Program-made: the position numbers and the translations under genes
Notes under the pieces: model-generated
What the model was told of the DNA's origin: nothing
The model's input: only the letters and a program-made list of their open reading frames with translations
Database searches by the model: none
IMG/VR virus record: IMGVR_UViG_3300044960_000476
Coordinates: 5,725-69,724 of that record
DNA length: 64,000 nucleotides
Strand: one strand, 5' to 3'
Source: a virus
Shown: positions 1-30,839 of the stretch, piece by piece
Numbering within the stretch: position 1 is the stretch's first letter
Layout of the letters: each line of letters starts with the position of its first letter

Positions 1-389
1 TGCCTAAAAGTAGCTCCAGCCGAAGTACCTTCCTCAACAGTTACAACCGCTTGTTCAAGCTCATCAGCAGTATTTGCGTCCAAAGCACGGGTCATCGCAG
101 TGCTTGGACCATTCCAAATATAAATACCGTTTTCTGCAGCATTAGTTTGAGCCCGCACCAAAACGCGGTCGCCCGTAGACATAGTGATGCCGTCAATAGT
201 GGTGCCGGGGCTAGCCAAGTTAATGTTTGCTTGCGTTGCTACACGTACGCTGTCTTTCCAAGACAAGCCTTCAACAGCCGAGTCTACATACGCTTTAGTA
301 GCAGCGTCTTGGTTGTCAGTGGGGTTAGGCAAGTTAATAATTTTAGCCGCGTTATTAAAGTCCAAATTAGTTGCCACAAGCTTCGCCAT
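1..389 (-). CDS. Virion fibre/decoration protein, N-terminal part (runs off the window)
   Basis: Not in the ORF track. Translated by hand from ATG 389: MAKLVATNLDFNNAAKIINLPNPTDNQDAATKAYVD...WKDSVRVATQANINL...TIDGITMSTGDRVLVRAQT...ENGIY, a motif set typical of phage virion structural/fibre proteins. Confidence 0.75.
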   Translation of the reverse strand, partial: MAKLVATNLDFNNAAKIINLPNPTDNQDAATKAYVDSAVEGLSWKDSVRVATQANINLASPGTTIDGITMSTGDRVLVRAQTNAAENGIYIWNGPSTAMTRALDANTADELEQAVVTVEEGTSAGATFR

Positions 390-401
390 AGTCTACACCT
401 C

Positions 402-722
402 TTAAACGCACCTAGCACGTCCCGCCATTGGGACAGTCAAATAAACCAACGCTTGATTAACAGAAACGTGAACAATTTCAGCCAATACTTCTGAACTTCC
501 TACGTTGTAAACATGAATGTCGGGAAAATACCCCAAATTGTGATTAATAGTCCATACAGATGCAGGCGCGGCTTGGAAATGCTCATAAGCAACTGCGCCC
601 CCGCCTGCAGATGAAGTAGTTATACGTGGCGGCCTGACACCAACTGAAACAACCCGAATACCGCGCTGGGATACATAAACCCTGCGTTGGGAGTTTAAAA
701 CATACATTTGTCGCCCGGTCAT
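402..722 (-). CDS. Phage virion structural protein
   Basis: Likely start ATG 722 overlapping the upstream stop (ATGA). WTINHNLGYFPDIHVY motif common in small phage fibre-associated proteins. Confidence 0.6.
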   Translation of the reverse strand: MTGRQMYVLNSQRRVYVSQRGIRVVSVGVRPPRITTSSAGGGAVAYEHFQAAPASVWTINHNLGYFPDIHVYNVGSSEVLAEIVHVSVNQALVYLTVPMAGRARCV

Positions 723-1261
723 GAGGTAATATCCTCCAAAACAATAAACGCCCCCAACAAGGGAGTTTCTACTGTTGCGGGCGAGCCGGGCCAAGTAACC
801 TCAAGGTCATAATTATATCGGCCAGGCGGCATGTTCATGTTCGCCGACTCAACGCGAATAATAAACAACCCCATTGGGGCTTGTGCGCCAGACGGTAAAC
901 CGGCTGATAAAGGCTCTACTTTCAACTCGGTTTCACCTTCTGCAGCATCTTGCGTAAGCCGTACAAGCACGTTACCAAACTTTAAAGTTTGTTTGGTTTC
1001 TGAATTGCCCAACAAAGGACCAGGTAACGGTAAAACAGACAACGTATTAGTTCCTGCTACTGCATTTGCAGCCAACACTACTGGTCCTGGTATTTGAATT
1101 CGTCCGTTAGCAGTGCTAGCTTCTAAAAGCAGCTGGCGCGCTGCGTTGCGAATTTGAAGCCGAATAGAAGCTCCAGTAAGGTTTTCTAAACCCAATGCGT
1201 CTTCAAGCCAAATGGGTAGCTCCCAAGTATCGCCTCTAACAACAGTTATGTTGTGAGTCAT
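719..1261 (-). CDS. Phage structural protein, BppU-like beta-sandwich
   Basis: ITVVRGDTW...LTGASIRLQIR...GRYNYDLEVT pattern; GGGGG RBS upstream. Confidence 0.55.
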   Translation of the reverse strand: MTHNITVVRGDTWELPIWLEDALGLENLTGASIRLQIRNAARQLLLEASTANGRIQIPGPVVLAANAVAGTNTLSVLPLPGPLLGNSETKQTLKFGNVLVRLTQDAAEGETELKVEPLSAGLPSGAQAPMGLFIIRVESANMNMPPGRYNYDLEVTWPGSPATVETPLLGAFIVLEDITS

Positions 1262-1334
1262 GTTTTGCTACCCCCTGCAAAAGTAATTGCCCAAAACCAT
1301 GCCAGAAGTTTATACACAGCACTCTCCCAACACG

Positions 1335-2750
1335 TTACAGCGGTATATTTGACAAGTCGTCAAGCTCTTCAAAAGCGTCTTCAATGTCTACTGTAAAATT
1401 AGGCTCGACTGCGTGGGGTAATGCAGGGTTTTCCTCAGGCAAATACCAAGCAGCCATAGCCAAGCTAACTACCCTGTCATCTTTACCACGCCCCGCTGCA
1501 TGCATTTTAAGCGCACCCGACGGGGTGCGCTCATACACAAAGTCAGCAAACTCCTGAATGTATTCTTTGTCGTCAGGTAAAACAATACGTTGGTTTTCAA
1601 TAAGCAACGCTAGCTTGTTAATGTATTTTTCTTTTTCGACTGTCGTGCCAAAGTTAGCAGTCGACAAAGGAACGCCCATATTAGCCAGCTGCTCAGTAAG
1701 CGGGTCACCAATACCACGCGAGTCAACCACAACAAAAGAGTTGGGGTATTCGCGTTGTAGAGCAGCTAACTGATTAAGCTGGCGCTCCCAACTAACAGTA
1801 TTAAGTCGCTGCACACGAACAACAGTGCGTGTGTCTAAATTTAAGACAGTAAAAACGCTAAAGTCGTCTAAGCGAGCAAAGTCAGCACCAATTACATAAC
1901 GGTGAAATTTACTTTGTGTATTAATTGGCGTAACAAACAATTCGTTTTCCGTTTTGTGCCAAACTTTTTGTTTTGGGCATTCCCACAAACGTTGAAATAC
2001 TGAGCCTGAGTCAGGAATAAACTCTGCGCCATATTCTTGACGAAAAGCACGTTCAGGTTGAATTCGCTTTTGTTGCTCAAAAAACTCCGCAGAAACGTTT
2101 GGGTTTGCTTCCCATGTAGGAAGTTGCCAACAAGCGTATTGCGTATGGTTGGGCCAACCCGGTTTGTCTTTATATTCTAAAGCCGTCCTAAACAGTTCAT
2201 ATACCCAGTCATAACCTTTAGGCGTAGTAATAAGCAACACCCAACCTTGCGTCGTAGTCAATGTGGGCAACAAGCTTTCAAAAAACACTTGTTGGTCCGT
2301 CATTGCCGCTTCGTCCATGATTAGGTAGTCGAGGGTAGCACCACGCAAGTTATCGGGGTTGTCACTGGTTTTTCCCTGAAAGCGGCTAGTTGCTACAAAA
2401 CGGCCTTTGCTGTCGTAATGATGCACGTCTAGACGCATCATGCGCCGCGACAGCGATATTTCTCGTTTACCAGGAAGACGCTCGTGTGCCTTTTTAACCA
2501 TTTCCGCTACACGCTCAAAAACAAAAGTAGCTTGCTCGTAAGTTGGTGCAACTACCCAACCGCGAGAACCGTGGCTAAACAAAATTTCGTAAGCTGCCTC
2601 AACAGCAGCTATTTGGCTTTTACCAGACTGACGGCCTACTACTACAACCCTATATTGCGCCCAAGAGTCATGAACGGCTTGTTGGTAAGGATAAGGCTTA
2701 TAGTCGATAAGACGGAAAAAAGCTGAAGAGGGGGCATGTTTCCTAAGCAT
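1335..2750 (-). CDS. terL: Terminase large subunit
   Basis: Walker A GRQSGKS, VAPTYEQA, NLRGATLDYLIMDEAA (Walker B), TTPKG, nuclease IGADFARLDD and KDDRV. Closely resembles Thermus phage P74-26 TerL as I recall it. Confidence 0.97.
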   Translation of the reverse strand: MLRKHAPSSAFFRLIDYKPYPYQQAVHDSWAQYRVVVVGRQSGKSQIAAVEAAYEILFSHGSRGWVVAPTYEQATFVFERVAEMVKKAHERLPGKREISLSRRMMRLDVHHYDSKGRFVATSRFQGKTSDNPDNLRGATLDYLIMDEAAMTDQQVFFESLLPTLTTTQGWVLLITTPKGYDWVYELFRTALEYKDKPGWPNHTQYACWQLPTWEANPNVSAEFFEQQKRIQPERAFRQEYGAEFIPDSGSVFQRLWECPKQKVWHKTENELFVTPINTQSKFHRYVIGADFARLDDFSVFTVLNLDTRTVVRVQRLNTVSWERQLNQLAALQREYPNSFVVVDSRGIGDPLTEQLANMGVPLSTANFGTTVEKEKYINKLALLIENQRIVLPDDKEYIQEFADFVYERTPSGALKMHAAGRGKDDRVVSLAMAAWYLPEENPALPHAVEPNFTVDIEDAFEELDDLSNIPL

Positions 2751-2791
2751 ATATGTATGTATGTATCAAGCCCCCACTGTATGCTCTTATT

Positions 2792-2802
2792 ATTATACCA
2801 TA
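2792..2802 (-). promoter_or_regulatory. Extended -10 promoter (TATGGTATAAT) for terL
   Basis: TGnTATAAT in the terS-terL gap; the same 14-mer TTTATGGTATAATA occurs at 4797-4810. Confidence 0.7.
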
Positions 2803-2804
2803 AA

Positions 2805-3368
2805 TTAGTCTTTTACTGAACTATATTCCACGTCAATTACTTTTGGGGGCTTCCTAACGAATTCGTCAAGCTTAATAGCTTCGCCTTCGGGTAACGCGGT
2901 CGCGGCGTTGGAAGTGTTCTTAAGCCTATTGCTCATTTCAGTAATAACCGCAAGTCTTGCACGTCTTATTTGTTCGAGAATTTGTAGCTGTTTTGTCAAG
3001 TCTTTAACGGAAACCGGCTCAATGCGCTTACCGTTTTCGTCGTAATATTGTCCTTCATTTTGCATTTGCCAATTACTTTTGGCGCGAAGGTACAGCTCAT
3101 TCATTTCTTGCTCAATAACAACGCTTTTTGCTAAATAACCCGCTAATTCATGCTCAACTAGGCTAGACAAGTCAATATTGCCTACCGCCGCTTTGATGCG
3201 GCGGTAGGCTTTTTCGACTTGCTTAATGGTGCAGTCATACTGCTTGACTAAAGTGTTGTAAATTTCTCGTTGCGTAAAACCCCAAGATGCAAGAGTAAAT
3301 ACCTGTTCATAAAAACTGACCTCTTCTTTTGACTTTACAAGCTGTCGCACCTTATCCAGCACTGACAT
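2805..3368 (-). CDS. terS: Terminase small subunit
   Basis: Directly upstream of terL. N-terminal HTH (VSFYEQVFTLASWGFTQREIYNTL) plus helical oligomerisation region, resembling P74-26 TerS. Confidence 0.8.
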   Translation of the reverse strand: MSVLDKVRQLVKSKEEVSFYEQVFTLASWGFTQREIYNTLVKQYDCTIKQVEKAYRRIKAAVGNIDLSSLVEHELAGYLAKSVVIEQEMNELYLRAKSNWQMQNEGQYYDENGKRIEPVSVKDLTKQLQILEQIRRARLAVITEMSNRLKNTSNAATALPEGEAIKLDEFVRKPPKVIDVEYSSVKD

Positions 3369-6150: not shown

Positions 6151-6549
6151 GTAGTACACCTCTGATGTGGTACGACAAAACGCGGGCCGCAAAAGGGTCA
6201 GAGAATTTGATAGCCCCCCGGAGAGGCCCAACCCGCCCACCCAAAAGTAGTACACCAAAAGCAAAAACCGGACATGACTGAGGTAGTACGCCAGCGCTCG
6301 GCTGTGGTTGCCCCGCTCGTCCCACCACTCGCGGTCCGTACCACCCCCATCGCGCCCACCCTCAAAGGTGGTACACACGCACAGCGCGGTAGAGGTAGTG
6401 GTGGTTTTCTCTCACAAGGCTGAGGTAGTACACCCGGCGGGCCTTGACTGGCCCGCCCGCCCACCCTAAGGTAGTACACCGTCCATCAGCCGGTCCATGC
6501 GGGTGGCCGGTCCTGACTGGCCCGCCCACCCGCCCTTAGTTGGTACGCC
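6151..6549 (+). repeat. Cluster of GTRGTACRCC boxes with CCCGCCCACC boxes
   Basis: Copies at 6151, 6167, 6247, 6283, 6368, 6425, 6471 and about 6540, plus one inverted at 6338. Confidence 0.8.
6444..6472 (+). promoter_or_regulatory. Host sigma-A promoter upstream of the phage RNAP gene
   Basis: TTGACT-17 nt-TAAGGT. Confidence 0.55.
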
Positions 6550-6595
6550 CGCCGCCCACGAGAAAAACAAAAAACAAAAAACAAAAAAACAAAAA

Positions 6596-6621
6596 CGCCT
6601 ACCGGCGACTGACCAGCGGAG
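6596..6621 (+). promoter_or_regulatory. Hairpin motif copy (putative phage-RNAP promoter)
   Basis: CGCC-TACC-GGCG ACTGA CCAGCGG, preceded by A-tracts at 6563-6595. Confidence 0.55.
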
Positions 6622-6626
6622 CAAAA

Positions 6627-6788
6627 GAAAGGAGTGACAACTCCTTTCGCGGCAGCGCCGCCGCTACCGGCCTAGCACGGGCGGCCTGTCGGCGGTCAAG
6701 GGTTCGCTTCGCCCTTCGGCCCTTGACCGCCTGGCCGCCCGTGCTGGCCTCCGCTTAAGCGGCGCTGCCGCTATGCGAAAGGAGTTGT
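6627..6788 (+). promoter_or_regulatory. Structured 5' leader of the RNAP gene (about 150-nt rod pairing with the SD)
   Basis: Nested arms ACAACTCCTTTCGC/GCGAAAGGAGTTGT, GGCAGCGCCGC/GCGGCGCTGCC, AGCACGGGCGGCC/GGCCGCCCGTGCT, GGCGGTCAAGGG/CCCTTGACCGCC. Confidence 0.75.
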
Positions 6789-6796
6789 GGTAGAAG

Positions 6797-8926
6797 ATGG
6801 TAGAGAAACTAAGAAAAATAGTAACAGACAAAGAAGCTACCCTGGTAGAAAAGAAAAACGTTTACCAGGGTAAAATGGTCAATGGAGAGTGGCTACCAAC
6901 TTCTCTCCACGACCGTTATGGCAATATCGTCCGCGTCGTGAAGGTGGAGCGCGATGCGGACAATGAGCTCATTACCCCTGTCGCCAAGGTAGATACTGAA
7001 TTCGTCTTTGTAGGCGGTAACCGTCATCGGGCCGTCTACGTAAAAGAAGACAGCCTTGCCCGGTGGTTGGATGCCGCCGCCGGTGACTCCAACTGGGCTG
7101 CGGCTTCAATGCTGCGGCCCGGTAAGTTGACGAAAGAGAATAAAGAGTTTGGCTGGACGGGGTATGAGGAGTCCAGCCTCGACACCGGTCTTCTCGCCAT
7201 TATGTCGCGGGAAGACTGGACAGTATTCGTTCAGGCGTTCGGTCTACCTGTGGAGGCAAAGCTTGCACAGGTGACTGTCTTCGACCTGGATAACATGGTG
7301 TCCGCAAAGGGCACCATCAGGGTGGCGTTCAGCGGAGAGCACCCAACCGTCTTCCCAAGTTCGTGGAAGAGGTTTGGCGAACTGCGTACCGAGTTTTCCG
7401 CTGTCCTAACTGTTGACGCGGTATACCGCCCCCAAGCGTCTATTAATGCCCAGGAGCTGCAGTACTGGTGCTACAGCAGGGGGCGCAAGTTGGCGGATTG
7501 GGTCTGGGAGGAATTGGCCCAGGCCCAGGAAGCCGTCCTACAAGAAAAGGGGTCTGTATGGACCCCGTATGGATACTTGAGTGCCCTCGGTATGTCGGGG
7601 GCTTTAAAGTCCGTCACCTACGACCTGGTGGACGGGCAACGCGGCAGCTTAACCAATATGTTGCGACGGGTGAAGTTTAGCGCCCGTCGCGGTTTGCGGG
7701 CCAAAACGACCGCGACCGCCATCATTAAGGAAGGAGAAGTACTCCTTCCCGAAGAGGCGAAGCGGCACGTGCGGGTGGGGCAAACGGTTGTAGTAGGTAG
7801 AAACCCCGCGTTGCCTAGCCAGGACTGGCAGGTATACAAAGTCGCGGGGTTCATACCTGCTAACGTCGTTGCATTTAACCCGAACGACCGGGGCTGGACC
7901 GCCGAACTCGGTGGCGACCACGATGGCGATGACTGTGTAGTTTACTACCAGTCACCCGTCGTCGGCGGCGAACCAGTCGGGCAACACGGGCTTGACCTGC
8001 AAAGCATCAAGCCGCAAGCCCGCAAGTTGGACAGCAACACCGTTGAGGCTAGGCTTCAGCGGTGGAAGAACGAAACGGCCGCAAACATCGGGCAGTTCGA
8101 GATTAATGCCCGGCGTTTGTCAACCAAAGGGCACCTTACCACCGAGCGTGCCAAGTTGTTCACTACAGCCATTCAGACGGTAATTGCGTTGAAGAAGCGG
8201 GTGGCCAAGCTGGAAGAACAGGCTTGGTACCCGGCAGTCGACGAGCTGATGGACGCGGCCAGCCGGTTGAGGGGCAAGAACGACGCGGACCGTATTAAGC
8301 GGTTCGCAGCGGGCGAGGTCGAGCAACGGTTCGACAACCCCACGACCGCTGCGTTGGCCGAACAGCTGCGCGGGTCGTTGGCACTGGTGACCACCCGGCA
8401 CCGGTACAACGACAGCGAAGAAATGCGGGCGCTGTTCGGTGCCAATGCGGAAGCGCCCAGCATTGTCAAAAACATGCTGGAAGAATACTATAGCCTCCAG
8501 ACGGCCAAAGCCGAAGCCAAACTGATGGGGGCCGACGTCCACCACCTGAACCAGCGCTTGAAAGTGCTGGTGCATCTGGAAGGCCCCGAGGTGATGATGA
8601 CCCTCGATGAAGAGGCGTGGAAGCAGGCCAGCAAATGGCTGATAGCAAACGCGCCCACCGAGGTGTGGGTGTACTGGAGCCACCCCGAGGTCATCCGCGA
8701 GTTTCTGACCTTCGTGGGCGCGACTAAAATTCGCATCGTTGGGCCGGTGGAAGAAATAAAACTTGAGGTGGGCGAAGTCGTCGAAGTGGACCAAAGCGGA
8801 CTCCGCGAGCTGGTCATCGACGAACAGGAGTTCGTGGTGGCCGAAGAGACGGGCTACCTCGAAGCCGGGCGCTACCAGGTGGTGGCCGTGAGCAAGCGCG
8901 GCGCTACTCTCGAAAAAACAAAGTAG
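6797..8926 (+). CDS. Single-chain two-barrel RNA polymerase (cellular RdRP/YonO/P23-45 gp64-like)
   Basis: Double-psi-barrel motifs in order: AKGT, VVVGRNPALP and LGGDHDGDDCVV (DxDGD metal-binding loop); first large gene of the early region. Confidence 0.88.
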   Translation: MVEKLRKIVTDKEATLVEKKNVYQGKMVNGEWLPTSLHDRYGNIVRVVKVERDADNELITPVAKVDTEFVFVGGNRHRAVYVKEDSLARWLDAAAGDSNWAAASMLRPGKLTKENKEFGWTGYEESSLDTGLLAIMSREDWTVFVQAFGLPVEAKLAQVTVFDLDNMVSAKGTIRVAFSGEHPTVFPSSWKRFGELRTEFSAVLTVDAVYRPQASINAQELQYWCYSRGRKLADWVWEELAQAQEAVLQEKGSVWTPYGYLSALGMSGALKSVTYDLVDGQRGSLTNMLRRVKFSARRGLRAKTTATAIIKEGEVLLPEEAKRHVRVGQTVVVGRNPALPSQDWQVYKVAGFIPANVVAFNPNDRGWTAELGGDHDGDDCVVYYQSPVVGGEPVGQHGLDLQSIKPQARKLDSNTVEARLQRWKNETAANIGQFEINARRLSTKGHLTTERAKLFTTAIQTVIALKKRVAKLEEQAWYPAVDELMDAASRLRGKNDADRIKRFAAGEVEQRFDNPTTAALAEQLRGSLALVTTRHRYNDSEEMRALFGANAEAPSIVKNMLEEYYSLQTAKAEAKLMGADVHHLNQRLKVLVHLEGPEVMMTLDEEAWKQASKWLIANAPTEVWVYWSHPEVIREFLTFVGATKIRIVGPVEEIKLEVGEVVEVDQSGLRELVIDEQEFVVAEETGYLEAGRYQVVAVSKRGATLEKTK

Positions 8927-9316
8927 CGCCTCCGGCGCCCTTCCGGCGGGGGTTGGACCTAAAAAGGGTCCAACCCCCTAAACCATGCAGGCCGCCTGCC
9001 GGCGGCTTGCCAGCGGGGGCCAAAGCCCCCAAAGACAAAAGAAAAAGGGCGCCTGCCGGCGCCCTTCCTGCGGGGCCTGGCGGCCCAAGGAGGAAAAAAT
9101 GAAAAAAGAAATGAAAGAAAAAGTCCTCATGGTAGCGACGGCCGTGGCGTGGGGCCTGTTGGTCCCGGGCCTGGTCCTGGGGTTCCTGGTCGGCCTGGCC
9201 ATTTTCCGGGCCGTCTTGGGCTAAAACACAAAGGGGCGCCTCCGGCGCCTCTCCGGCGGGGGGTGTGAAGCCCCCAAGGCAAGAAGAAAGCCGCCTGCCG
9301 GCGCCGCCCAGCGGGG
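8926..9316 (+). repeat. Five copies of the hairpin motif CGCC-T(G)CC-GGCG-N4-5-CCNGCGGGG, each followed by a G-run stem-loop
   Basis: Copies start at 8926, 8991, 9049, 9236 and 9290; all intergenic and in the same orientation. Confidence 0.9.
9099..9224 (+). CDS. Small membrane protein (41 aa)
   Basis: AAGGAGG RBS; long hydrophobic segment VLMVATAVAWGLLVPGLVLGFLVGLAIF. Confidence 0.7.
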   Translation: MKKEMKEKVLMVATAVAWGLLVPGLVLGFLVGLAIFRAVLG

Positions 9317-9342
9317 CAGGAAAGCCCCGAAAGGAGGTAAAC

Positions 9343-9624
9343 ATGAAACTCATGGACGTAGTTTTGTTGGTGTGCCGTGCCCTCAGCCTGAACGTAGACA
9401 TCATTGCGACCCCAAACGGAGCAATGCTCACTGACGAAAAGGGCAGCCCCGTCGGGGTGATGCGGTTGGTCAATGGCCGCCGCCTGGAAATGGTTTACAG
9501 GAGCGGCAAAGGCGTGGTAAAGCAAGCCATCAGGCTTCCTAAGTTTGTCACCCGACCAATGCATGCGGGCGACAAGCTTCGGGCAGTCGCAGCTGTTGTC
9601 GTCGAGGAGGCGGCTATGGCTTAG
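9343..9624 (+). CDS. Early protein, paralog family E copy 1
   Basis: AAGGAGGT RBS before ATG 9343; MKLMDVVLLVCRAL...DEKGSPVGVMRL. Confidence 0.8.
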   Translation: MKLMDVVLLVCRALSLNVDIIATPNGAMLTDEKGSPVGVMRLVNGRRLEMVYRSGKGVVKQAIRLPKFVTRPMHAGDKLRAVAAVVVEEAAMA

Positions 9625-9683
9625 AGGGGCGCTGTGCCCCCTCGCATGAGGGGGTACGCCTCAGCTAAAGAAAGGGGGTAAAA

Positions 9684-9938
9684 ATGAAACCACGGTTGAT
9701 AGACATAGTGGCATTAGTTGCCCAAGCCATCCGGGGCGGTAAACACCGGGTGGCACTTGGGCCGCAAAAAACCGGTGGCGCTGTATTTGACGACGCGGGA
9801 GAGCCCGTTGGCCTGTTCAAGGTTGAGGGAGAAACACTCCACATCTCCTTGGACGTACACGGCCAAGTCGAGTACTACAAACTCGGCTTGGAAAGATACC
9901 TAAAACAACTTTCTCTGGCAAAGGGGGTAAGAGCATGA
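9684..9938 (+). CDS. Early protein, paralog family E copy 2
   Basis: AGGGGG RBS; RLIDIVALVAQAI...GGAVFDDAGEPVGLFKV. Confidence 0.8.
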   Translation: MKPRLIDIVALVAQAIRGGKHRVALGPQKTGGAVFDDAGEPVGLFKVEGETLHISLDVHGQVEYYKLGLERYLKQLSLAKGVRA

Positions 9939-10063
9939 AAAACGAAGAGGTGTGGGGTGTAATAACCTACTACCCGCCTTGCGCGGCAAAAAAGCAACGC
10001 CGCAATTGGCCTAGGTGGTTCAGATACACCATCCGCAGGCTGTTCAGGTTGAACCGCAAATAA
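9935..10063 (+). CDS. Small basic peptide (42 aa)
   Basis: ATGA overlap with the previous gene, AGGGGG RBS; MKNEEVWGVITYYPPCAAKKQRRNWPRWFRYTIRRLFRLNRK. Confidence 0.55.
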   Translation: MKNEEVWGVITYYPPCAAKKQRRNWPRWFRYTIRRLFRLNRK

Positions 10064-10074
10064 ACAGATAATGT

Positions 10075-10100
10075 GCGCCTCCGGCGCCGTCCGGCGGGCG
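10075..10100 (+). promoter_or_regulatory. Hairpin motif copy
   Basis: GCGCC-TCC-GGCGC CGT CCGGCGGG. Confidence 0.65.
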
Positions 10101-10128
10101 GTGCTGGAGGCCCAGAAAGGAGAAAACT

Positions 10129-10500
10129 ATGCTGGTAAACACCATCAAAGCAGCGGCCCAAGCTTTGGGCGTTAAGTCGGAACCGGAAGTAATTGTAAGC
10201 ACCCACCGTGGTGACACTCACTACGGTGGTGCGTATATGGCCACCGGCGGCATCCTGGAGAATGGGCGGCAAATTGGCCTCTTTAAGGCGGAAGAGAAGC
10301 GCGGTAAAACCGCCGTCGAGTTGCTGCTAAACACTCCATCAGGAGTAAAGAAAGCCTGCTTGAGGATATCAGCCCAGTTGGGCGAACTGAAATCCACCAG
10401 GGAAGGGTTGGCCTACACGGAAGGAATGGCCGCCAAGAACTGGTGGCCGACTGATGCGAGTGGACGGCGCTTCGAAAGCCGTCCGTTGCCCGAAGAATAA
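10129..10500 (+). CDS. Early protein, paralog family E copy 3 (divergent)
   Basis: AAAGGAG RBS; MLVNTIKAAAQAL...GGILENGRQIGLFKA. Confidence 0.75.
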   Translation: MLVNTIKAAAQALGVKSEPEVIVSTHRGDTHYGGAYMATGGILENGRQIGLFKAEEKRGKTAVELLLNTPSGVKKACLRISAQLGELKSTREGLAYTEGMAAKNWWPTDASGRRFESRPLPEE

Positions 10501-10526
10501 GCGCCTCCGGCGCCTGACCAGCGGGG
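10501..10526 (+). promoter_or_regulatory. Hairpin motif copy
   Basis: GCGCC-TCC-GGCGC CTGA CCAGCGGGG immediately after a stop codon. Confidence 0.65.
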
Positions 10527-10573
10527 TGTTCACGGAATGGGCCAACGTGGACACCCCCAAAAGCCTTTGGCCC
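10523..10573 (+). ncRNA. H-type pseudoknot in the 5' leader of the gene at 10589
   Basis: Stem 1 GGGGTGTTCACG/CGTGGACACCCC (one G.U); loop GGGCCAA (10539-10545) complementary to TTGGCCC (10567-10573) next to the SD. Confidence 0.55.
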
Positions 10574-10588
10574 GAAAGGAGAAAAAGT

Positions 10589-10804
10589 ATGGCCTATCTT
10601 TGGTTTCAAACCAGCACCTACCGCGGCCACATCCTTAACGAGGTGTGCGCAGACATCGAACCGGGCTTGCAAATGCTAGAGGAAGCCCTCGACAGCGGTA
10701 ATTTTGTCGAGGGATATGTCCGCGTGGGTAAAAGGAAGTACCCGTTCACGGACACGAATGCCAGCGACGTCATTGCTACTTTACTAGAGAGCAAAGTCAT
10801 TTAG
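10589..10804 (+). CDS. Hypothetical early protein (71 aa)
   Basis: AAAGGAG RBS before ATG 10589. Confidence 0.75.
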   Translation: MAYLWFQTSTYRGHILNEVCADIEPGLQMLEEALDSGNFVEGYVRVGKRKYPFTDTNASDVIATLLESKVI

Positions 10805-10823
10805 GGGTGGTTTATCCACCCTT

Positions 10824-10888
10824 GGGCCGCAAGCCTCCACCTCCACGTGGTGCGGCCTGGGAGCCCCGCAAGGGGAACTAACGGAGGC
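10824..10888 (+). ncRNA. HDV-like self-cleaving ribozyme
   Basis: P1 GGGCCGC/GCGGCCT (G1.U), P2 GCCTCC/GGAGGC, P3 ACC/GGT, L3 TCCACGT, P1.1 CC/GG, P4 CCCC-GCAA-GGGG, J4/2 CTAAC. Confidence 0.9.
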
Positions 10889-10906
10889 AAATGAAAGGAG
10901 TAAAGT

Positions 10907-11287
10907 ATGCTGAATGTAAAGCACATGTACCAGGGAGTTATTATCCGCACCCCTTACAGCAAGAAGGGGCAGGCTAAGACGGGCGACCACTTCACCACTT
11001 ACAGGGCTTTGGCTGATGAAGCGAGCAACCGTTGGCTTGACCTGTACGTCTTTGGCGACGAGGCGGTTTTGGCTGTGCTGCCTCAGAAGCTGCTGGTTCG
11101 CGGAAACGTTTCCGTGTTGAACCTGCCCCAAACCCAAGAACTGCCCGGAAAGACCATTCTTGGGGCAAACGCCCTCTCCCTGGAAGTTTGGGACAGGGGG
11201 AAAGGAAAATGGACCAAAATGGCCGCGTTCATCGCGGGCTTGGCGGCTAAAGCGGAGGCAGAGGAGGCAATTGAACTGGAGTTTTGA
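10907..11287 (+). CDS. Hypothetical early protein downstream of the ribozyme
   Basis: AAAGGAG RBS; 126 aa; acidic C-tail ending ELEF (SSB/OB-fold-like, tentative). Confidence 0.8.
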   Translation: MLNVKHMYQGVIIRTPYSKKGQAKTGDHFTTYRALADEASNRWLDLYVFGDEAVLAVLPQKLLVRGNVSVLNLPQTQELPGKTILGANALSLEVWDRGKGKWTKMAAFIAGLAAKAEAEEAIELEF

Positions 11288-11378
11288 GGGCCATAAGGCC
11301 CTCTCACTGAGGGGGTACACCCCCGCTAAATGCGGGGGAGTACTCCCTTGGTCAAAGGAGGTGGTACACCAGCCGGAA

Positions 11379-11389
11379 TGTGATATACT
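11379..11389 (+). promoter_or_regulatory. Extended -10 promoter facing the non-coding region
   Basis: TGTGATATACT. Confidence 0.5.
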
Positions 11390-11757
11390 AGTAAGCATGT
11401 AGTACGCTCTTGCGGAGCCAGGCAGGGGGCGGGGCGGCAGCCCCGCCCCCCTACTGTCTGCAAATAATTCTCTCCTTACTCTCCCATAGTTATTTTCAAA
11501 CACCCCCGGGGTGGGGGTACAAACCAGCCGAGTAGTGTCCGTTTGGACAAATGGCTAGCCTCTACTCGGCAAGGTGTGTCGACAGACTGGGGAGTAAGCT
11601 ATTTGGCTTACTCTCCAGTTGTTTCTATTTGCTATTTTCTATTTCCTGTTTGCTAACCCCGCGCGGGCAAGCTTGTGGCCTTTAAAGCGGTCGCGGTGGG
11701 CATGTTATCCAGCTTCGTCACAGACGTAAAAAATGAAGCTGACATTCAACAAACCCG

Positions 11758-12386
11758 CATTCTTCCAATATAAAAGTGGGGGGTGGCCTTATTTTGGCTT
11801 ATACGGCCTCAGAGAGGCCAAATTTTTGGATGCCAATTTTGGGGTCGATAAGAAAGGCATTTTTTGCACTTAATATGCTTCCCCGGTATATTTACCCTTA
11901 AACCACCTTACCCCCGTCTTAAAATTGATTATACGGCCTTACAGAGGCATTCTAGAGGTGGGGTTTAAACCTGACGAAAAGTTTGGGGTTAGGAAATAGG
12001 AGCTAGGAAATAGGAAGTAGCAAAATGCTTTACCTTGCTATTTCCTACTCCGCTATTTCCTACTCCGCTATTTCCTAACTCCTAGTTTCTATTTTCTAAC
12101 CCATAACCCACTCTTTTTCTCCGTCCAGGACGTTATTCACCCAACTCACCCTTAATTTATGCCCATTCTTACGATATAAAAATGGGGGGTGGCCTTAAAA
12201 TTGATTATACGGCCTTATAGACCCCTTTTAAGCGGATGGCAAAATTGGGGTCGATAAGAAAGGCAAAAATTGAAGCTAATGTGTCACCCCGGTATATTAC
12301 CCCTTAGAAGGGCTACCCCCCGTCTTAAAATGGCTTATACGGGCTTATAGGGCCATTCTACGGAGGGGGTTGCAAGCTGGCGAAAA
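11758..12386. repeat. Imperfect 223-bp direct duplication (11758-11980 and 12164-12386)
   Basis: Shared blocks GGGGGTGGCCTTA, GGGGTCGATAAGAAAGGCA, CCCCGGTATATT and CCCCCGTCTTAAAAT; TTATACGG at 11799, 11929, 12205 and 12335. Confidence 0.9.
11990..12100. repeat. TAGGAAATAG / CTATTTCCTA short repeats in inverted arrangement
   Basis: Two TAGGAAATAG copies, then three GCTATTTCCTA copies at 15-bp period. Confidence 0.8.
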
Positions 12387-12540
12387 TATAGAGTTTGGAC
12401 TGGATGAAAGAGGGGTTGCGTGCAGGGCAATTCCGTTATTCCTTCCTCCCTTCATACCTTAACCCAAAAACCCCTTATTTCTTAACTCAAAACTTTTCTC
12501 AAAACCCACCAAATTCCGTTACTTTTGAACGAAAAGAGTG

Positions 12541-12960
12541 CCTATAATAAGAGCAAAAAGCCCTATAAAGGGCTTTTTGCTCTCTACTAACTATTAGTTA
12601 GCTAACTACATGCTATATACTAGCTAACTAACAAGTTGTTAGTAAGCTAACTACATGCTTTATATATAACTATAATACGCTGTCGTGTGCTAGTATAATA
12701 TATAAGCTAACTAAAGGAGCTAAACCCTTAAAGGGTTTAGCTCCTAGTATATACTAGTATATTATATATATTTATATATTGTTTTTACTCATTACTATAT
12801 ACTAGCTAACTACATACTTTATACTAACCATCCCTATACTTTATACTAACTAGGAGCATTACCCTATAAAGGGTAATGCTCCTATATATACTTATTACTA
12901 GCTAACTACATGCTTTATATTAACCATCTACATGCTTTATACTAACCATTATAGGGGCAC
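12541..12960. other. Putative replication origin: very AT-rich, AGCTAACTA repeats, three palindromes
   Basis: No ORF. AGCTAACTA(CATGCT) six times; palindromes at 12550-12583, 12715-12745 and 12851-12884. Confidence 0.55.
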
Positions 12961-13011
12961 TACCAACTTTCGAAAATAAACCAACGCTGTCGGGCGCAAG
13001 GAGGGTAGCAA

Positions 13012-13710
13012 ATGACTGTTGAACAAGTTCATGAAATAGTGCGCAAGGTTTACCAAAGGTTAACAAGTATCAAGCAAGTCCAGTATGCTTACATTGGGCT
13101 TGCAGGTGGTTGTGCAGCATGGTTGGCGGGCAAGACAGCCCGCCAACCAAATGACATAGACATTTGGTTTTCAACCAAGCCAAGTTTGTTTAATATGGCT
13201 TGGAAAACTTTGGGTATAACCATAGACGACAATGCTCCAGTATACTTTGATGAAACTAGCGTCCACAAAGAGGTAATTGACGGGGTAGAGGTAAACGTTA
13301 TTGGCATTACTTGTTACTATTCATGGCGGTCGCCTGCAGAGCAATTAGAAAAGCTTATTTCCAGCTTTGACGTACCCCAACACCGTGTAGGGTATGTCAT
13401 TAACGACGGTGAGTTAGACATTTTCATTAACAGTCCGTATTACTATGACGAATGGACTGTCGCAACAATGCTGTGCGACAGCGATGAAGTAGTAACTAAA
13501 ACCAGTCGTGCATTTAAATTTAAACAAGCAGGTTACAAAATGTGCGACAGAATACAATTACTAGCACACATGTATGAAATGGGTGTTGACAGGCGTGTGC
13601 TGGTAACTAAGGACGGCGTTGGCCTGGACACTTGGGTAACGTGGGAAGAATTACCCGGTCATATAGCTAAGCTTGCCCTCGAAACGGCTACTACTAGGAC
13701 TAACCCATGA
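13012..13710 (+). CDS. Nucleotidyltransferase-like protein (Pol-beta superfamily head), catalytic DxD intact
   Basis: LAGGCAAWLAG...PNDIDIWF...FDVPQHRV...RAFKFKQAGY; AAGGAGGG RBS. Confidence 0.75.
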   Translation: MTVEQVHEIVRKVYQRLTSIKQVQYAYIGLAGGCAAWLAGKTARQPNDIDIWFSTKPSLFNMAWKTLGITIDDNAPVYFDETSVHKEVIDGVEVNVIGITCYYSWRSPAEQLEKLISSFDVPQHRVGYVINDGELDIFINSPYYYDEWTVATMLCDSDEVVTKTSRAFKFKQAGYKMCDRIQLLAHMYEMGVDRRVLVTKDGVGLDTWVTWEELPGHIAKLALETATTRTNP

Positions 13711-14414
13711 GCCGCGACAGCGTTAGAAGAAACCTGCTGGACTTGATAGGCAACGTAGTAATTACGTTGCAAGAAAAGTTAGACGGCATAAAGTACGAAT
13801 TGGCATTGTTTGGTGGTGCAGCTGCATGGCTTGTTCACCAAACCAAGCGCATACCGGACAACTTCAACATTAGCATTAACGTTCATCACAATGAAGTTGT
13901 AAAGGTATTAGAACGTCTTAAAATAGACTATGACAGAACATACCAACCTTTCTTTTACAAAACTTCCATTCACGTCTGTAACTTTCCTGTACGCTTAGTA
14001 GTAGCCAAACCACGTTATTCTTCTGCTAAAGGCAATGTACATGCGGAATATCTGTCGTCGTTGCTTGATATTCCGCAACACAGGGTAGTGTTAATTAATT
14101 TGGGAGGTAAATACCAATGCCACTTTTCAGCGCCATTCATGTTTGCCTGGTCCCATGAGTGGACCAGGCAAACAATGTGCCGTGGTATGGTGTACCACCT
14201 CAAGACTAGTTCGACAAGAATATTGCGGGCGGTGCAGGACGGATACAAAGTATCCGACGAAATAAGGCACTTAGGCTTGCCCGCCGAAGTTGGGCTTAAC
14301 ATTAATTACCTTGTGGAAAGGGGGTTAATTAAAACTAAGTACGGCGTGTTTGCTTGGGAAGAGATACCCGAGTTTGTGTCGAAGCTAACGCTAATGGGGG
14401 CAAATGATGCGTAA
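13707..14414 (+). CDS. Nucleotidyltransferase-like paralog 2, DxD replaced by NxN
   Basis: LFGGAAAWL...PDNFNISI...LDIPQHRV. Confidence 0.75.
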   Translation: MSRDSVRRNLLDLIGNVVITLQEKLDGIKYELALFGGAAAWLVHQTKRIPDNFNISINVHHNEVVKVLERLKIDYDRTYQPFFYKTSIHVCNFPVRLVVAKPRYSSAKGNVHAEYLSSLLDIPQHRVVLINLGGKYQCHFSAPFMFAWSHEWTRQTMCRGMVYHLKTSSTRILRAVQDGYKVSDEIRHLGLPAEVGLNINYLVERGLIKTKYGVFAWEEIPEFVSKLTLMGANDA

Positions 14415-15102
14415 AAAAGTCGAACAAGTGCTCCGCTACATTGACAAAACGTTGAAAAAGAAAAACATACCTTACAGGAGCATAATACTGTTTGGCGGTG
14501 CAGCAGCTTATCTGGCTGGCGCAACACAGCGCCAGCCAGACAACATAAATGTCGCCATTTGCACTCATCCAGCACGCCACGACAGCGTTTTATTGGCTTT
14601 GAAAGTAAAAGACTTGCCAATGGCTAAAGCCCATAAAATTCACCGAAAAATAGACATAGACGGCACGGAAGTACGGCTCGAAATAAGCTCGGCATGGCAC
14701 CACAGTACAAAGGCTGCCCACCGCCATGCTGAACATATTTGTTCATTGGTAGACGTGCCGCAACACAGGGTAGTCTATCATTGGGACGGTAGACTAACCG
14801 GTCCAGAATATTACTACTACGCTCCTTATTGGAGCAAAGAAAGCATGACGCAAACTAAGGCCGGTATTAATACCGATACATTGCGTATTGCTAAATTCAA
14901 GAGAGAAAACTATGCCATGTCTGACGACATAGCTATGTTTGCGTTGTTGGGAGAATTGGGCATTCTTGTTGACCTGTGGGTCAGCGAAATGCATATTCTG
15001 ACAACGTATGGCTTTATTGAATGGGACGAAATAACTGACTTTGTGCTCAAAGTAGCCATGATGCACAAAGGAGCACAAAATGAACAGGAAAACAATAGTT
15101 AA
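14404..15102 (+). CDS. Nucleotidyltransferase-like paralog 3, DxD replaced by NxN
   Basis: LFGGAAAYLAG...PDNINVAI...VDVPQHRV. Confidence 0.75.
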   Translation: MMRKKVEQVLRYIDKTLKKKNIPYRSIILFGGAAAYLAGATQRQPDNINVAICTHPARHDSVLLALKVKDLPMAKAHKIHRKIDIDGTEVRLEISSAWHHSTKAAHRHAEHICSLVDVPQHRVVYHWDGRLTGPEYYYYAPYWSKESMTQTKAGINTDTLRIAKFKRENYAMSDDIAMFALLGELGILVDLWVSEMHILTTYGFIEWDEITDFVLKVAMMHKGAQNEQENNS

Positions 15103-15760
15103 CGTATTGCACGCAATAGACGATAAGCTATACGCGTTATACCCAAAACGCTATGCTAGCATGCTGCTCTATGGTGGTGCTGCAGCTTGGTTGGCGGGCG
15201 TGACCAAGCGCCCGCCAACCAACATTAACGTGGCAATTAGCGCCGCGCCTTCATACATTGAGCCCATTTTGAAGGCATTGGGCTTGGAGCAAAACGCCAA
15301 ATTTTACCCACACCAGAGTAAAGCACGTATTCAAATTGACGGCATTGACGTGCTCATGTACATTAGCTCGCCCTGGTATTACCACCAAGACGTTGCTAAG
15401 CGTCATGCTATGCACGTCTGCTCTCTTTTCGACGTACCACAACACCGGGTAGTAATGCATTACCAAAACGGACTAAGTGAGCCGGTTTATTGTGGTTGGG
15501 CGGACACTTGGTCTAGAGAAACCATGTGTAACAGTTACTTGGACGTTTGCACCAATACCATGCGTATTTACAAATTCCTGCAGGCGGGTTATTCCATGTC
15601 TAGCGAAATAGCATTGCTTGGTACATTAGGCTCCCTCGGCATTTCAAAAAACATATGGGCTAACCAACACGGCATTACAGTATCGGACGACTGGATAGGC
15701 TGGAATGAGTTGCCAACGTTTGTATGCCAAGTAGCAATGTCGACAGACACAAGTCAATAA
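15080..15760 (+). CDS. Nucleotidyltransferase-like paralog 4, DxD replaced by NxN
   Basis: LYGGAAAWLAG...PTNINVAI...FDVPQHRV...RIYKFLQAGY. Confidence 0.75.
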   Translation: MNRKTIVNVLHAIDDKLYALYPKRYASMLLYGGAAAWLAGVTKRPPTNINVAISAAPSYIEPILKALGLEQNAKFYPHQSKARIQIDGIDVLMYISSPWYYHQDVAKRHAMHVCSLFDVPQHRVVMHYQNGLSEPVYCGWADTWSRETMCNSYLDVCTNTMRIYKFLQAGYSMSSEIALLGTLGSLGISKNIWANQHGITVSDDWIGWNELPTFVCQVAMSTDTSQ

Positions 15761-15769
15761 GCCGAATGG

Positions 15770-15795
15770 GCGCCTCCGGCGCCTCTCTGACGGGG
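15770..15795 (+). promoter_or_regulatory. Hairpin motif copy between the two paralog arrays
   Basis: GGCGCC-TCC-GGCGCC TCTCTGACGGGG. Confidence 0.6.
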
Positions 15796-15802
15796 TGAAA
15801 AC

Positions 15803-16237
15803 ATGTACAAGCTAGTAAAGTCACTACCTGTGGCGACAGAAATGCCAAGTAAAGACGAATTGCTTCATCAAAGGCGTAAACTCTTTTACTTGGTAGAGGC
15901 CACGCATAAACTGGTCAAACACTTGGCGGGCGACATCGGTAAGCCCCGTACATGGTCTGTGTACTTTACGCGGGAAACACAGCTGGAAAAAATGTTTTAC
16001 GTCAGTTACAGCTACCACATTCCCACCAACCCATACGAACAGCTAATTATTGCCTCGGCTATAACTGACGCTTTTGAATTACCGCGTGGAGTAAACCCGG
16101 CTCTAGGAAAGAAGTGGAAGCGTAACATTCGCTTTTACGTACCATGCACAACTGACGAAGGCGTGCAGACAATAGTAGAAGCAACAAGAAAGTTGGAGGA
16201 GCAGCTATGGGCGTTAAACCAAGAATTGAACAGCTGA
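15803..16237 (+). CDS. Paralog family B copy 1, unknown function
   Basis: MYKLVKSLPV...SAITDAFEL...FYVPCTTDEG. Confidence 0.75.
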   Translation: MYKLVKSLPVATEMPSKDELLHQRRKLFYLVEATHKLVKHLAGDIGKPRTWSVYFTRETQLEKMFYVSYSYHIPTNPYEQLIIASAITDAFELPRGVNPALGKKWKRNIRFYVPCTTDEGVQTIVEATRKLEEQLWALNQELNS

Positions 16238-28874: not shown

Positions 28875-29228
28875 GTGTCTATGGATGGCCTGTACCACCG
28901 TCAGCTTGGGTTTCCAAACGTGCCGCTTCCATGCGGCACGTTTTTGCTTAGTTACACCCGGCATGCGCTGAAAGAAGCGCTGACGGACTGTTACAGCTGT
29001 ATTCAATTGCCGCCTAGTTTACAAGTAACGCCCGAAAGCATTGTTGAAATTGAAGTTAAACAAAAAACTGTGGTTAAAGTTTTAGTTAGAATTGAGTATT
29101 CTAATGACTTTGACCTGTGCTTAGTGTTAAAGCCGCACCACCTTTGGGCAACGGTATTGACGGTGTGGCTTAATAAACGCAATGACCAGCATTCTACGTT
29201 AAATATAAGCCGATATAAGTTGCCGTAA
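28875..29228 (+). CDS. Conserved phage hypothetical protein
   Basis: YTRHA...EIE...DLCLV...TVWLN...DQHSTL. Confidence 0.65.
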   Translation: MSMDGLYHRQLGFPNVPLPCGTFLLSYTRHALKEALTDCYSCIQLPPSLQVTPESIVEIEVKQKTVVKVLVRIEYSNDFDLCLVLKPHHLWATVLTVWLNKRNDQHSTLNISRYKLP

Positions 29229-29239
29229 GGAGGTGCTAA

Positions 29240-29821
29240 GTGGGGTTAAAAATAGCATTGCATGGCTATGGTAGGGCCGGTAAAGACACTGCAGGCGCGG
29301 TACTATGCGAAGTAATTCCCGGCATGACCAGGGTTGCTTTGGCGGACTTTATCAAAGAAGACGTCGCTCAGTATGTTGAGCATTTGACTGGAATTAACGT
29401 ATGGAATTGCGACGAAAAAGAAAAAGAGTTAATTCGCGGGTTTCTTATTGCCGCCGGTAACTACCGATATCAAAAGTACCTGTATAAGCTAATGTCCAAA
29501 GTTGCCCAATGCGCTCATGTTGTAAATACGAGAATTTATAGGCTCGAAGAATGTGAAGCGTGGCTTGACGCGGGCGGCATTATCGTTGAGGTTAGACGTG
29601 CAAACAACCCGCCTAAAGAGCCTTATGAAGCTGAATACCTTGAGTTGGCCCGACAGCGTGGGTATATACACTATGTACTAGAAAACAACAGCGACTTGGA
29701 AAGCTTTAAAACCAAGGTAGCAAAGTGGGGCGAGGAGTTGTTTCTAAAATGGAGAAAAACCTTTTCCATCCAGACTTTATATACTTACTTAAAAAACTTA
29801 AGCCAAGCACAGCCGTCTTGA
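29240..29821 (+). CDS. Deoxynucleoside monophosphate kinase-like protein
   Basis: P-loop GYGRAGKDT, ALADFIKE, GGIIVEVRR, LENNSDLE. Confidence 0.8.
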   Translation: MGLKIALHGYGRAGKDTAGAVLCEVIPGMTRVALADFIKEDVAQYVEHLTGINVWNCDEKEKELIRGFLIAAGNYRYQKYLYKLMSKVAQCAHVVNTRIYRLEECEAWLDAGGIIVEVRRANNPPKEPYEAEYLELARQRGYIHYVLENNSDLESFKTKVAKWGEELFLKWRKTFSIQTLYTYLKNLSQAQPS

Positions 29822-30619: not shown

Positions 30620-30626
30620 GGTTATT

Positions 30627-30839
30627 ATGTCGCACTTACCGCCGGAATTAAAACCAAAATGTCCGCGCTGTAAGAAAGACACATTAGTAGAAAAGTTTCA
30701 TCGTGGCGAACCTGTTTACTGTTGTTACGACTGTCGTTGGTGTTGGCACATAGATGATGAAATGCTATGGGAGGCTATATATGCGTCTACTAAACCTAAT
30801 CGCAAACGTGTGGGCAAGACTAAACGGTCTTCTGTATGA
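30627..30839 (+). CDS. Zn-ribbon protein
   Basis: CPRC...CYDC. Confidence 0.65.
   Translation: MSHLPPELKPKCPRCKKDTLVEKFHRGEPVYCCYDCRWCWHIDDEMLWEAIYASTKPNRKRVGKTKRSSV

Follow-up and report, generated by a model that had tools for sequence, protein, structure and literature searches.

Promoter recognition through a DNA hairpin has been described for the virion RNA polymerase (vRNAP) of phage N4. According to the excerpted text of PMC4496689, this enzyme binds a template-strand hairpin whose GGA or GAA loop contains a sheared G:A pair (-10G, -12A). These promoters are conserved from -17 to +1, and their inverted repeats flank a GC-rich heptamer with its centre at -11; stem bases that are not conserved are free to change provided that pairing stays, and extrusion of the hairpin requires gyrase and is stabilised by SSB. 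Excerpts of a second review (PMC13037366) name GCGGAGC, with a loop of GGA or GAA, as the N4 element, and describe the mini-hairpin as restricted to GNA triloops, with melting temperatures (Tm) of 76 C (N=A) and 73 C (N=G), and as accepting CC-GG stems. Here we report the analysis of a 64,000-nucleotide stretch of viral DNA (the window hereafter; positions 5725-69724 of the 69.7-kb IMG/VR record IMGVR_UViG_3300044960_000476, CheckV completeness 63%), in which nine copies of a GC-rich hairpin followed by a G-rich box accompany the gene for a putative single-subunit two-barrel RNA polymerase. We regard it as moderately likely that the nine elements are promoters of this phage-encoded polymerase, the product of open reading frame (ORF) 6797-8926, and are read by it as hairpins.

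Promoters of single-subunit two-barrel polymerases are essentially undefined, be it for YonO, crAss gp66 or P23-45 gp64, the last of which has a loose GC-rich logo. The gp64 protein of P23-45 is a non-virion two-barrel polymerase (Chaban et al. 2024, PMC10770324), and the same study reports that Thermus phage phiFa encodes a gp64 homologue and is without a tape-measure-fused virion polymerase. The gp66 protein of crAss-like phage phi14:2, QDE-1 and YonO belong to the same broad single-subunit class as the window enzyme. Excerpted accounts state that gp66 and QDE-1 favour single-stranded DNA templates and that gp66 is active on DNA that is single-stranded or denatured and inactive on native DNA (a preprint); as far as these excerpts go, the early transcripts of gp66 share no upstream motif and the YonO promoter is left open. 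Because gp66 and QDE-1 favour single-stranded templates, a promoter in unpaired or hairpin form is plausible for the window enzyme. The two-barrel non-virion polymerases of AR9 and phiKZ, again according to excerpts, read promoter bases on the template strand with no sigma factor; unlike the window enzyme they are multisubunit, and the promoter that these excerpts describe is short and linear, contains deoxyuridine in AR9, and involves no hairpin. The earlier note on this DNA, made from its sequence alone, knew of no hairpin promoter described for the two-barrel class, and no published one was found in the literature that we searched, which consisted mostly of open-access articles without supplements.

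The fold predicted for the 709-amino-acid product of ORF 6797-8926 identifies it as a two-barrel RNA polymerase of the P23-45 gp64 and QDE-1 kind. Its Pfam RdRP match is weak and sub-threshold (E 7.9e-5), PHROGs holds no family for it, and neither phmmer nor a profile search found a match in the PDB at E <= 1. By tblastn it matched phiFa only, and it has no detectable sequence homology to gp64. With phiFa gp44, annotated 'RNA polymerase', it shares 42.6% identity over 98% of its length, and thirty-one other homologues occur in metagenomes, four of them at 75, 58, 54 and 52% identity. The motif GGDHDGDD, corresponding to the catalytic DxDxD of a double-psi beta-barrel, occupies residues 372-379, and D374, D376 and D378 are invariant in 16/16 aligned homologues. 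In overall shape the predicted fold resembles the two-barrel crab claw of gp64 and gp62. An AlphaFold 2 model computed from the alignment of homologues (pLDDT 90.1, pTM 0.84) gave as its top Foldseek match P74-26 gp62 (8f5m, E 4.4e-14, TM 0.46/0.54), followed at about 1e-13 by P23-45 gp64 (8f72) and QDE-1, and lower down by P23-45 gp96, crAss gp66 and bacterial beta'. We assign the ORF to the gp64 family because of this fold match and because of what Chaban et al. report on the phiFa homologue (PMC10770324); the fold match and the DxDxD motif also back the call of a two-barrel polymerase made in the earlier note. The gene order of the record matches that of phiFa: terminase and ParB genes pointing left come first, the early block is next, and the rightward genes for ATPase, helicase, ribonucleotide reductase and DNA polymerase are followed by leftward tail genes. 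P23-45 and P74-26 are comparable to the window phage in the fold-level family of gp64 and gp62, as thermophilic long-tailed siphoviruses and in gene order, and differ from it in polymerase sequence, where identity lies below detection by BLAST or hidden Markov models. The promoters of P23-45 gp64, the only ones mapped for this polymerase family, were located by cappable-seq and reported to be GC-rich.

The element, with the core CGCC-T(N)CC-GGCG and a following box CCNGCGG(GG), occurs nine times in the window and only on the + strand (Table 1), compared with about 0.08 matches expected by chance. Scans of the window gave 4 matches of the 12-mer CGCCTNCCGGCG versus 0.02 expected and 5 of the 11-mer CGCCTCCGGCG versus 0.06 expected, counts attained in 0/100 shuffles. 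Across the whole 69.7-kb record the core has 9 forward and 0 reverse matches, and the reversed control pattern has none. All nine copies lie between ORFs and are co-oriented with the genes, as had been proposed, with coordinates that differ from the earlier ones by 0-4 nucleotides (nt) according to the base chosen as the stem start. The stems measure, in order, 4, 5, 6, 9, 6, 4, 5, 5 and 6 bp, so that the compensating extensions beyond the core noted earlier are borne out. The loops are TCC in five copies, TGCC in three and TACC in one (3 nt in 5/9, 4 nt in 4/9), and read GGA, GGCA and GGTA on the template strand, as claimed. The box follows GGCG after a gap of 5 nt in six copies and 4 nt in two; that of the ninth copy is degenerate, in agreement with the first description, and the copy at 6596, with a 4-bp stem and the box CCAGCGGAG, is the weakest of the set. 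The flank called A-rich at the outset is purine-rich by our count, with 77% purine in the 12 nt 5' of the stems, compared with 50% for the whole window and 56% over 6600-11300. No Rfam family matched the motif. A scan of viral contigs with the window motif returned 84 contigs with one match each, which we took as chance, and no further multi-copy contig; a search of sequencing runs located the stretch in eight DNA runs from hot-spring and mat metagenomes, four of which may be its source, and in no RNA run.

The same design stands beside this polymerase in 4/4 lineages read, namely the window phage, phiFa and two IMG/VR phages, G001 and G002, whose polymerases are 45% and 34% identical to that of the window. 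A locus search with the alignment of polymerase homologues yielded two viral loci and three metagenome loci, one of the latter three being a duplicate and two close to phiFa by shared repeat families; no related locus was found with a single polymerase protein as query, nor in genome contigs with the alignment. The hairpins of the relatives were found by a plain repeat search around the polymerase genes of four relatives, not with the window motif, and then by loop-anchored scans. All share a flank rich in A or purines, a GC hairpin whose loop is TCC or TTC, and, 9-12 nt past the loop, a G-rich box; in all four lineages tandem copies lie just downstream of the polymerase gene. There is no exact copy of the window core in phiFa. 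Its motif reads AG[G/C]CGC-TCC-GCG[C/G]CT, then 5-6 nt, then G[C/T]GGAGG, with the left arms AGCCGC, AGGCGC, CAGGCGC and AGCGC, the loop TCC or once TACC, and a flank that is AG-rich rather than A-rich. The phiFa motif is spread from 5 to 31 kb, ahead of early and middle genes, and 7/8 full + strand copies sit 32-108 nt upstream of an annotated start codon; at 16813, 18176 and 31084, as in the ninth copy of the window, the G-rich box doubles as a ribosome-binding site (RBS). G001 carries (N)GCGC-TCC-GCGC(N), then [CT]GGAGG, with the left arms CGCGC, ACAGGCGC, GGCGC and AACGCGC, and G002 carries GGGCCGC-TTC-GCGGCCC-GAA[CT]-CGGTGA in four forward and no reverse copies. A further G002 copy (L012 14516-14563) has its flanks and box in + orientation and its loop inverted, with GAA on the coding strand and one stem mismatch. 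A covariance model built from the nine window copies placed + strand copies from phiFa and G001 among its best matches outside the training set in 296 kb, at weak E-values of 0.19-7.6, and had no match in P23-45 or N4.

Pairing was analysed in 25 copies anchored on the loop (9 from the window, 8 from phiFa, 4 from G001 and 4 from G002). The first five stem positions are paired in 98% of cells; the copies were hand-picked for a stem of at least 4 bp, presence of the box and the gene strand, and pairing in positions 1-4 is therefore partly built in. With the partner slid, 18-49% of cells were paired, and with the arms shuffled among copies the mean was 62% and the maximum 80%. Because of this selection, the evidence for covariation consists of those stem differences that compensate each other from one lineage to another. 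A C:G pair closes the loop in 25/25 copies; the window has C:G as pair 2 where the other lineages have G:C, and pair 3 shows the reverse; pair 4 splits 14 to 11 between C:G and G:C; and pair 5 is paired in 23/25 copies with three standard types (G:C, C:G and A:T). Stem positions 1-5 contain no G:T pair (0/125 cells). In a model-fitted alignment, a procedure that favours structure and shifted the stems of the relatives by one register, 3/5 pairs changed on both sides, with observed values attained in 0/500 shuffles. A MAFFT alignment of the 25 copies placed the loops out of register and was not used for pair counts.

The distance from the end of the loop to the box is 11-12 nt in the window, 11 nt in 7/8 phiFa copies, 11-12 nt in G001 and 9-10 nt in G002, and is independent of the length of the stem (4-9 bp). 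Because this distance stays constant whatever the stem length, the signal has two parts, and the spacing between them is counted from the hairpin top. Loops of either 3 or 4 nt at constant spacing fit a hairpin better than a duplex site. A palindromic operator of a dimeric regulator was considered and rejected: its half-sites would lie just 8-9 bp apart, at a spacing of 3 or 4 nt, with asymmetric flanks. The tolerance of both loop sizes and of 4-9 bp stems also argues against the same promoter being read by the same polymerase as duplex DNA, with the palindrome a sequence feature or melting aid and no extrusion, since a 1-nt insertion would shift the register of such a site. Furthermore, a monomeric enzyme does not need a palindrome, yet this one was kept through C:G/G:C swaps at three stem positions, and on one strand the loops all belong to the G..A mini-hairpin class. 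We consider a duplex site unlikely on these grounds, while recognising that T7-like and most other phage polymerases use duplex promoters, that those of P23-45 gp64 were reported without a hairpin, that a stem nearly fixed within each phage (CGCC/GGCG in 9/9 window copies) is what base-specific contacts would produce, and that extruding short GC stems takes strong negative supercoiling. On the best reading, the form seen by the polymerase would be the hairpin and not duplex DNA.

On the template strand, the window copies read CC-GGA-GG, or have the 4-nt loops GGCA and GGTA; phiFa and G001 read GC-GGA-GC, giving a heptamer, GCGGAGC, identical to that of N4; and G002 reads GC-GAA-GC, the archetypal mini-hairpin. 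At the left end of N4 the corresponding coding-strand sequences are GTTGC-TTC-GCAAC and AAGAAGC-TCC-GCTTCTT, followed by ..GG. The earlier placing of the window loops in the GNA/GNNA mini-hairpin class agrees with the excerpts of PMC13037366 and with the heptamer shared by phiFa and N4. Like N4 promoters P1-P3, a type with stems of 5-7 bp and a 3-nt loop, the elements are short GC-rich inverted repeats with a C:G-closed loop of the GGA/GAA class before early genes, part of the stem bases are conserved while others co-vary, and a G lies at constant distance past the hairpin, which is the known start in N4 and the presumed one here. Unlike N4, the polymerase has a two-barrel fold instead of the T7-like fold of gp50, it is apparently made after infection and not injected, loops of 4 nt occur as well, and the sites number nine (more in phiFa) instead of three. 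Since the sole polymerase of the record is two-barrel, the window system is at most N4-like and not a member of the N4 type.

RNA starting at the G-run is predicted to open with a stem-loop at nt 1-2 in 7/9 window copies, the exceptions being the copies at 6596 and 15769, which agrees with the seven second stem-loops listed originally. The terminal 5' hairpins of these seven predicted transcripts have energies of -7.6 to about -30 kcal/mol, and this variable second hairpin always begins just past the conserved GC of the box. From these positions we would place the RNA 5' end at the G-run, whether it arises through initiation or through cutting, and the best reading puts the exact start site at or beside the G-run.

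Cutting is central to a further explanation, that of an intercistronic RNA signal in which the first hairpin guards a 3' end, a nuclease cuts the linker and the second hairpin guards a 5' end, or in which a protein binds the RNA hairpin. The early RNA of T7 is cut between genes at conserved hairpins. Two hairpins with a single-stranded linker would yield stable ends, and upstream transcription would run through every copy but the first. Hairpins lie 0-10 nt past stop codons both in the window (8926, 10501 and 15769, with that at 8926 beginning on the final base of the polymerase stop codon) and in phiFa (16813, 18176 and 31084), an arrangement to which an RNA 3'-end or processing role is equally suited. 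However, stems of 4-9 bp are far below what RNase III needs (about 20 bp of double-stranded RNA for T7-type sites), and the motif is without an Rfam match. As RNA, the loops UCC, UGCC and UUC are not known to be stable or to bind proteins; their complements, by contrast, are classic DNA mini-hairpin loops. The want of any G:U among the 125 cells and the fact that changes are all C:G to G:C would be unusual for an RNA helix. Lineage-specific stems suit a co-evolving pair of polymerase and promoter, not a host nuclease site, and the three tandem, gene-free units at 8926-9075 suit tandem promoters better. In our judgement an RNA signal has only a small probability, comparable to that of a duplex site.

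The elements might instead be promoters of another enzyme, either a virion polymerase unseen in the 63%-complete record or the host polymerase with a phage factor. In P23-45 the injected, tape-measure-fused polymerase reads the polymerase gene and the surrounding small genes (PMC10770324), and the window copies cluster in the equivalent region, at 6.6-10.5 kb; in addition, the phage G004 has similar hairpins without a window-type polymerase. We found no second DxDxD protein in the record, the 2999-amino-acid tape-measure-like ORF included, and no TANNNT or -35-like element between hairpin and G-run in the window copies. phiFa, moreover, is without a fused virion polymerase, yet has the motif at 5-31 kb, matching the reported spread of the non-virion enzyme, and we consider the involvement of another enzyme quite improbable. 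Leftward (- strand) intrinsic terminators, consisting of the hairpin and the T-rich complement of the A-rich flank, can be dismissed as highly improbable, for although a consensus scan placed - strand terminator-like sites on the hairpins at 6596, 8926, 9045 and 9235, a usable T-run is present in 4/9 copies only, the conserved box on the other side and the constant loop orientation would go unexplained, the phiFa flank is AG-rich and not A-rich, and there are no - strand genes to the right that need a stop within 6.6-16 kb. As for intrinsic terminators on the sense strand, which would show a T-run 0-2 nt past the stem, 0/9 hairpins were listed as + strand terminator-like, and the stems lead into C-rich linkers.

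Several further observations weigh against the interpretation of the nine elements as hairpin promoters of the two-barrel polymerase. Nearest-neighbour energies of the DNA hairpins are -4.3 to -11.9 kcal/mol at 37 C and alike on both strands, in a model that may miss the special stability of GNA loops; because the energies are equal, they do not tell the strands apart, and the computed data fit a hairpin read as DNA or RNA, on the template or non-template strand, alike. The loop-to-presumed-start distance is 14-15 nt, 4-5 nt longer than the 10 of N4, and the loop centre would lie near -15/-16 if the start is at the G-run, compared with -11. The core hairpin of phiFa is found on either strand, with 13 forward and 9 reverse occurrences, several of them inside genes; five (2 forward, 3 reverse) are second-terminal-repeat copies, and at 6392 (-), 18777 (-) and 61637 (+) a full hairpin-plus-box stands on the strand opposite the local genes; these opposite-strand copies could be antisense starts or chance. 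PMC10770324 characterises the cappable-seq promoters of P23-45 gp64 by a 'less conserved GC-rich motif', the main text of that article contains neither the word 'hairpin' nor a gp64 promoter consensus, and our scan of P23-45 found one phiFa-type hairpin only, inside gene 13. Finally, the hairpin is not exclusive to the window-type polymerase, because G004, a complete 83-kb phage, has 11 co-oriented TCC-loop hairpins at 29160-34414 and no relative of the window polymerase at E <= 0.01.

Weighing these points, we hold it probable that the elements are promoters of some kind. The earlier proposal of a hairpin promoter read by a two-barrel polymerase is strengthened by the link of motif and polymerase in 4/4 lineages and by the co-varying stems; its N4-like part fares less well, the energies being equal on both strands and the spacing differing from that of N4. 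Taken on its own, extrusion of a template-strand DNA hairpin as in N4 is a tentative idea that we credit with somewhat less than an even chance. On the favoured interpretation, the host polymerase would first express the phage enzyme from signals upstream of 6596. The phage enzyme would then recognise a bipartite signal of a GC-rich hairpin and a G-rich box at constant distance; in the hairpin, a C:G pair would close the loop, whose sequence is T(N)CC on the coding and GG(N)A on the template strand. Transcription would start at or next to the G-run, 14-15 nt past the loop, so that most early mRNAs would carry a protective stem-loop at the 5' end. Positive feedback on the polymerase gene would come from the weak copy at 6596, for which the autoregulation suggested earlier is plausible.

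A broader proposition is that polymerases of the gp64 and QDE-1 type find their promoters as extruded template-strand GNA mini-hairpins, and that N4 converged on this solution independently, down to GCGGAGC; we regard it as possible but more doubtful than not. Any hairpin promoter of a two-barrel polymerase would add to N4 a second example of promoters recognised by structure, and would be a striking convergence of unrelated folds. Hairpin recognition would fit the preference of the class for single-stranded templates and could be an old trait shared with the ancestors of eukaryotic RNA-interference polymerases, while GC-only stems with a mini-hairpin loop would keep the signal folded at the 60-75 C of thermophiles. 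A hairpin promoter would also offer a compact, orthogonal and thermostable polymerase-promoter pair. The window contributes a thermophilic gp64-like clade that has a cultured member, phiFa, which infects Thermus thermophilus HB27 and carries the same design, and close structural relatives of the enzyme have been solved, making the proposal testable at the bench.

Table 1. Coordinates of the hairpin-plus-box elements and the putative polymerase gene in the window, and of the full copies in phiFa (phiFa numbering).
Feature	Position	Strand	Hairpin and box	Context
RNA polymerase, predicted single-subunit two-barrel, 709 amino acids	6797..8926	+		GGDHDGDD, homology, predicted fold
Copy 1	6596..6619	+	6596-6607 CGCC-TACC-GGCG (4 bp); box CCAGCGG	178 nt upstream of polymerase ATG; preceded by (A5-7C)n tract
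Copy 2	8926..8952	+	8926-8938 GCGCC-TCC-GGCGC (5 bp); box CCGGCGGGGG	G-run at 8948 opens predicted 13-bp 5' hairpin, 8948-8978; first of three tandem copies
Copy 3	8991..9019	+	8991-9006 GCCGCC-TGCC-GGCGGC (6 bp); box CCAGCGGGGG	predicted 5' hairpin 9015-9030
Copy 4	9045..9075	+	9045-9066 AAGGGCGCC-TGCC-GGCGCCCTT (9 bp); box CCTGCGGGG	predicted 5' hairpin 9072-9086, then RBS, then small ORF 9099-9224
Copy 5	9235..9263	+	9235-9249 GGCGCC-TCC-GGCGCC (6 bp); box CCGGCGGGGGG	predicted 5' hairpin 9258-9275
Copy 6	9292..9316	+	9292-9303 CGCC-TGCC-GGCG (4 bp); box CCAGCGGGG	predicted 5' hairpin 9313-9328, then RBS, then ORF 9343-9624
Copy 7	10075..10098	+	10075-10087 GCGCC-TCC-GGCGC (5 bp); box CCGGCGGG	predicted 5' hairpin 10096-10113, then RBS, then ORF 10129-10500
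Copy 8	10501..10526	+	10501-10513 GCGCC-TCC-GGCGC (5 bp); box CCAGCGGGG	directly past stop codon; predicted 5' hairpin 10523-10557, then RBS, then ORF 10589-10804
Copy 9	15769..15795	+	15769-15783 GGCGCC-TCC-GGCGCC (6 bp); degenerate box CTGACGGGG	G-run is Shine-Dalgarno-like site, 11 nt before ATG of ORF 15803-16237
phiFa full copies	5111, 5163, 7681, 13095, 16363, 16813, 18176, 31084	+		

G004 and a second phage, G003, are complete genomes of 83-85 kb with terminal repeats, and both have a conserved box followed by a hairpin. The G004 unit reads ..GTTCGAnnC-[5-bp co-varying GC stem]-TCC-[stem]-TA(A/T)C.. and recurs about 520 nt apart; both copies read in sequence precede small ORFs. The tape measure protein of G004 is about 3600 amino acids long (ORF 75053-82936 plus 3-3074), and its first 1649 residues have no Pfam or PHROG family match and no DxDxD. 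G004 may represent another hairpin-promoter system with an unrecognised polymerase. The hairpin in gene 13 of P23-45 (annotated ribonucleotide reductase) reads AGGCGC-TCC-GCGCCT, then TGGAG, at ~8467 on the - strand, and G001 (L107) holds it in near-identical flanking sequence; this may be a promoter within the gene or else arise by chance from the coding sequence. The GC-rich motif of P23-45 was also sought in intergenic regions and among all GC hairpins of that phage, with no clear result.

Upstream of the polymerase gene, the window contains at 6340-6560 three repeats of the form ~GCCCGCCCACCC..(T/C)AAGGT(A/G)GTACAC, followed by the (A5-7C)n tract at 6560-6595, and similar GGCCCGCCCACC repeats precede the phiFa polymerase gene (L001 1896-2215). 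Both sets are candidates for host-read signals that first express the polymerase; the repeats at 6340-6560 do not meet a sigma-70 scan. The 5' leader of the polymerase gene (6618-6796) is predicted to fold into a long rod (-114.6 kcal/mol) that buries the RBS, and a local hairpin at 6627-6648 could compete with this predicted rod.

Further downstream, the interval 10822-10900 has a sub-threshold match to the Rfam hepatitis delta virus (HDV) ribozyme over the full length of the model (33 bits versus a gathering threshold of 50, E 0.099), just before ORF 10907-11287, which is without a hairpin motif of its own. A 1.7-kb gene-free field at 11300-13000 separates the early block (59% GC) from the remaining genome (about 45% GC), and contains TTATACGGCCTTA-type boxes common to G001 (L011 families D1/D5) together with palindrome-bearing AT-rich AGCTAACTACATGCTTTATA repeats; at the corresponding site of phiFa, where its terminal repeat ends, there is likewise a field of repeats. 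Within the 1601-amino-acid ORF at 31783-36588, ribonucleotide reductase matches are confined to residues 587-655 and about 1100-1600, and faint unrelated matches between these parts suggest inserted elements such as inteins.

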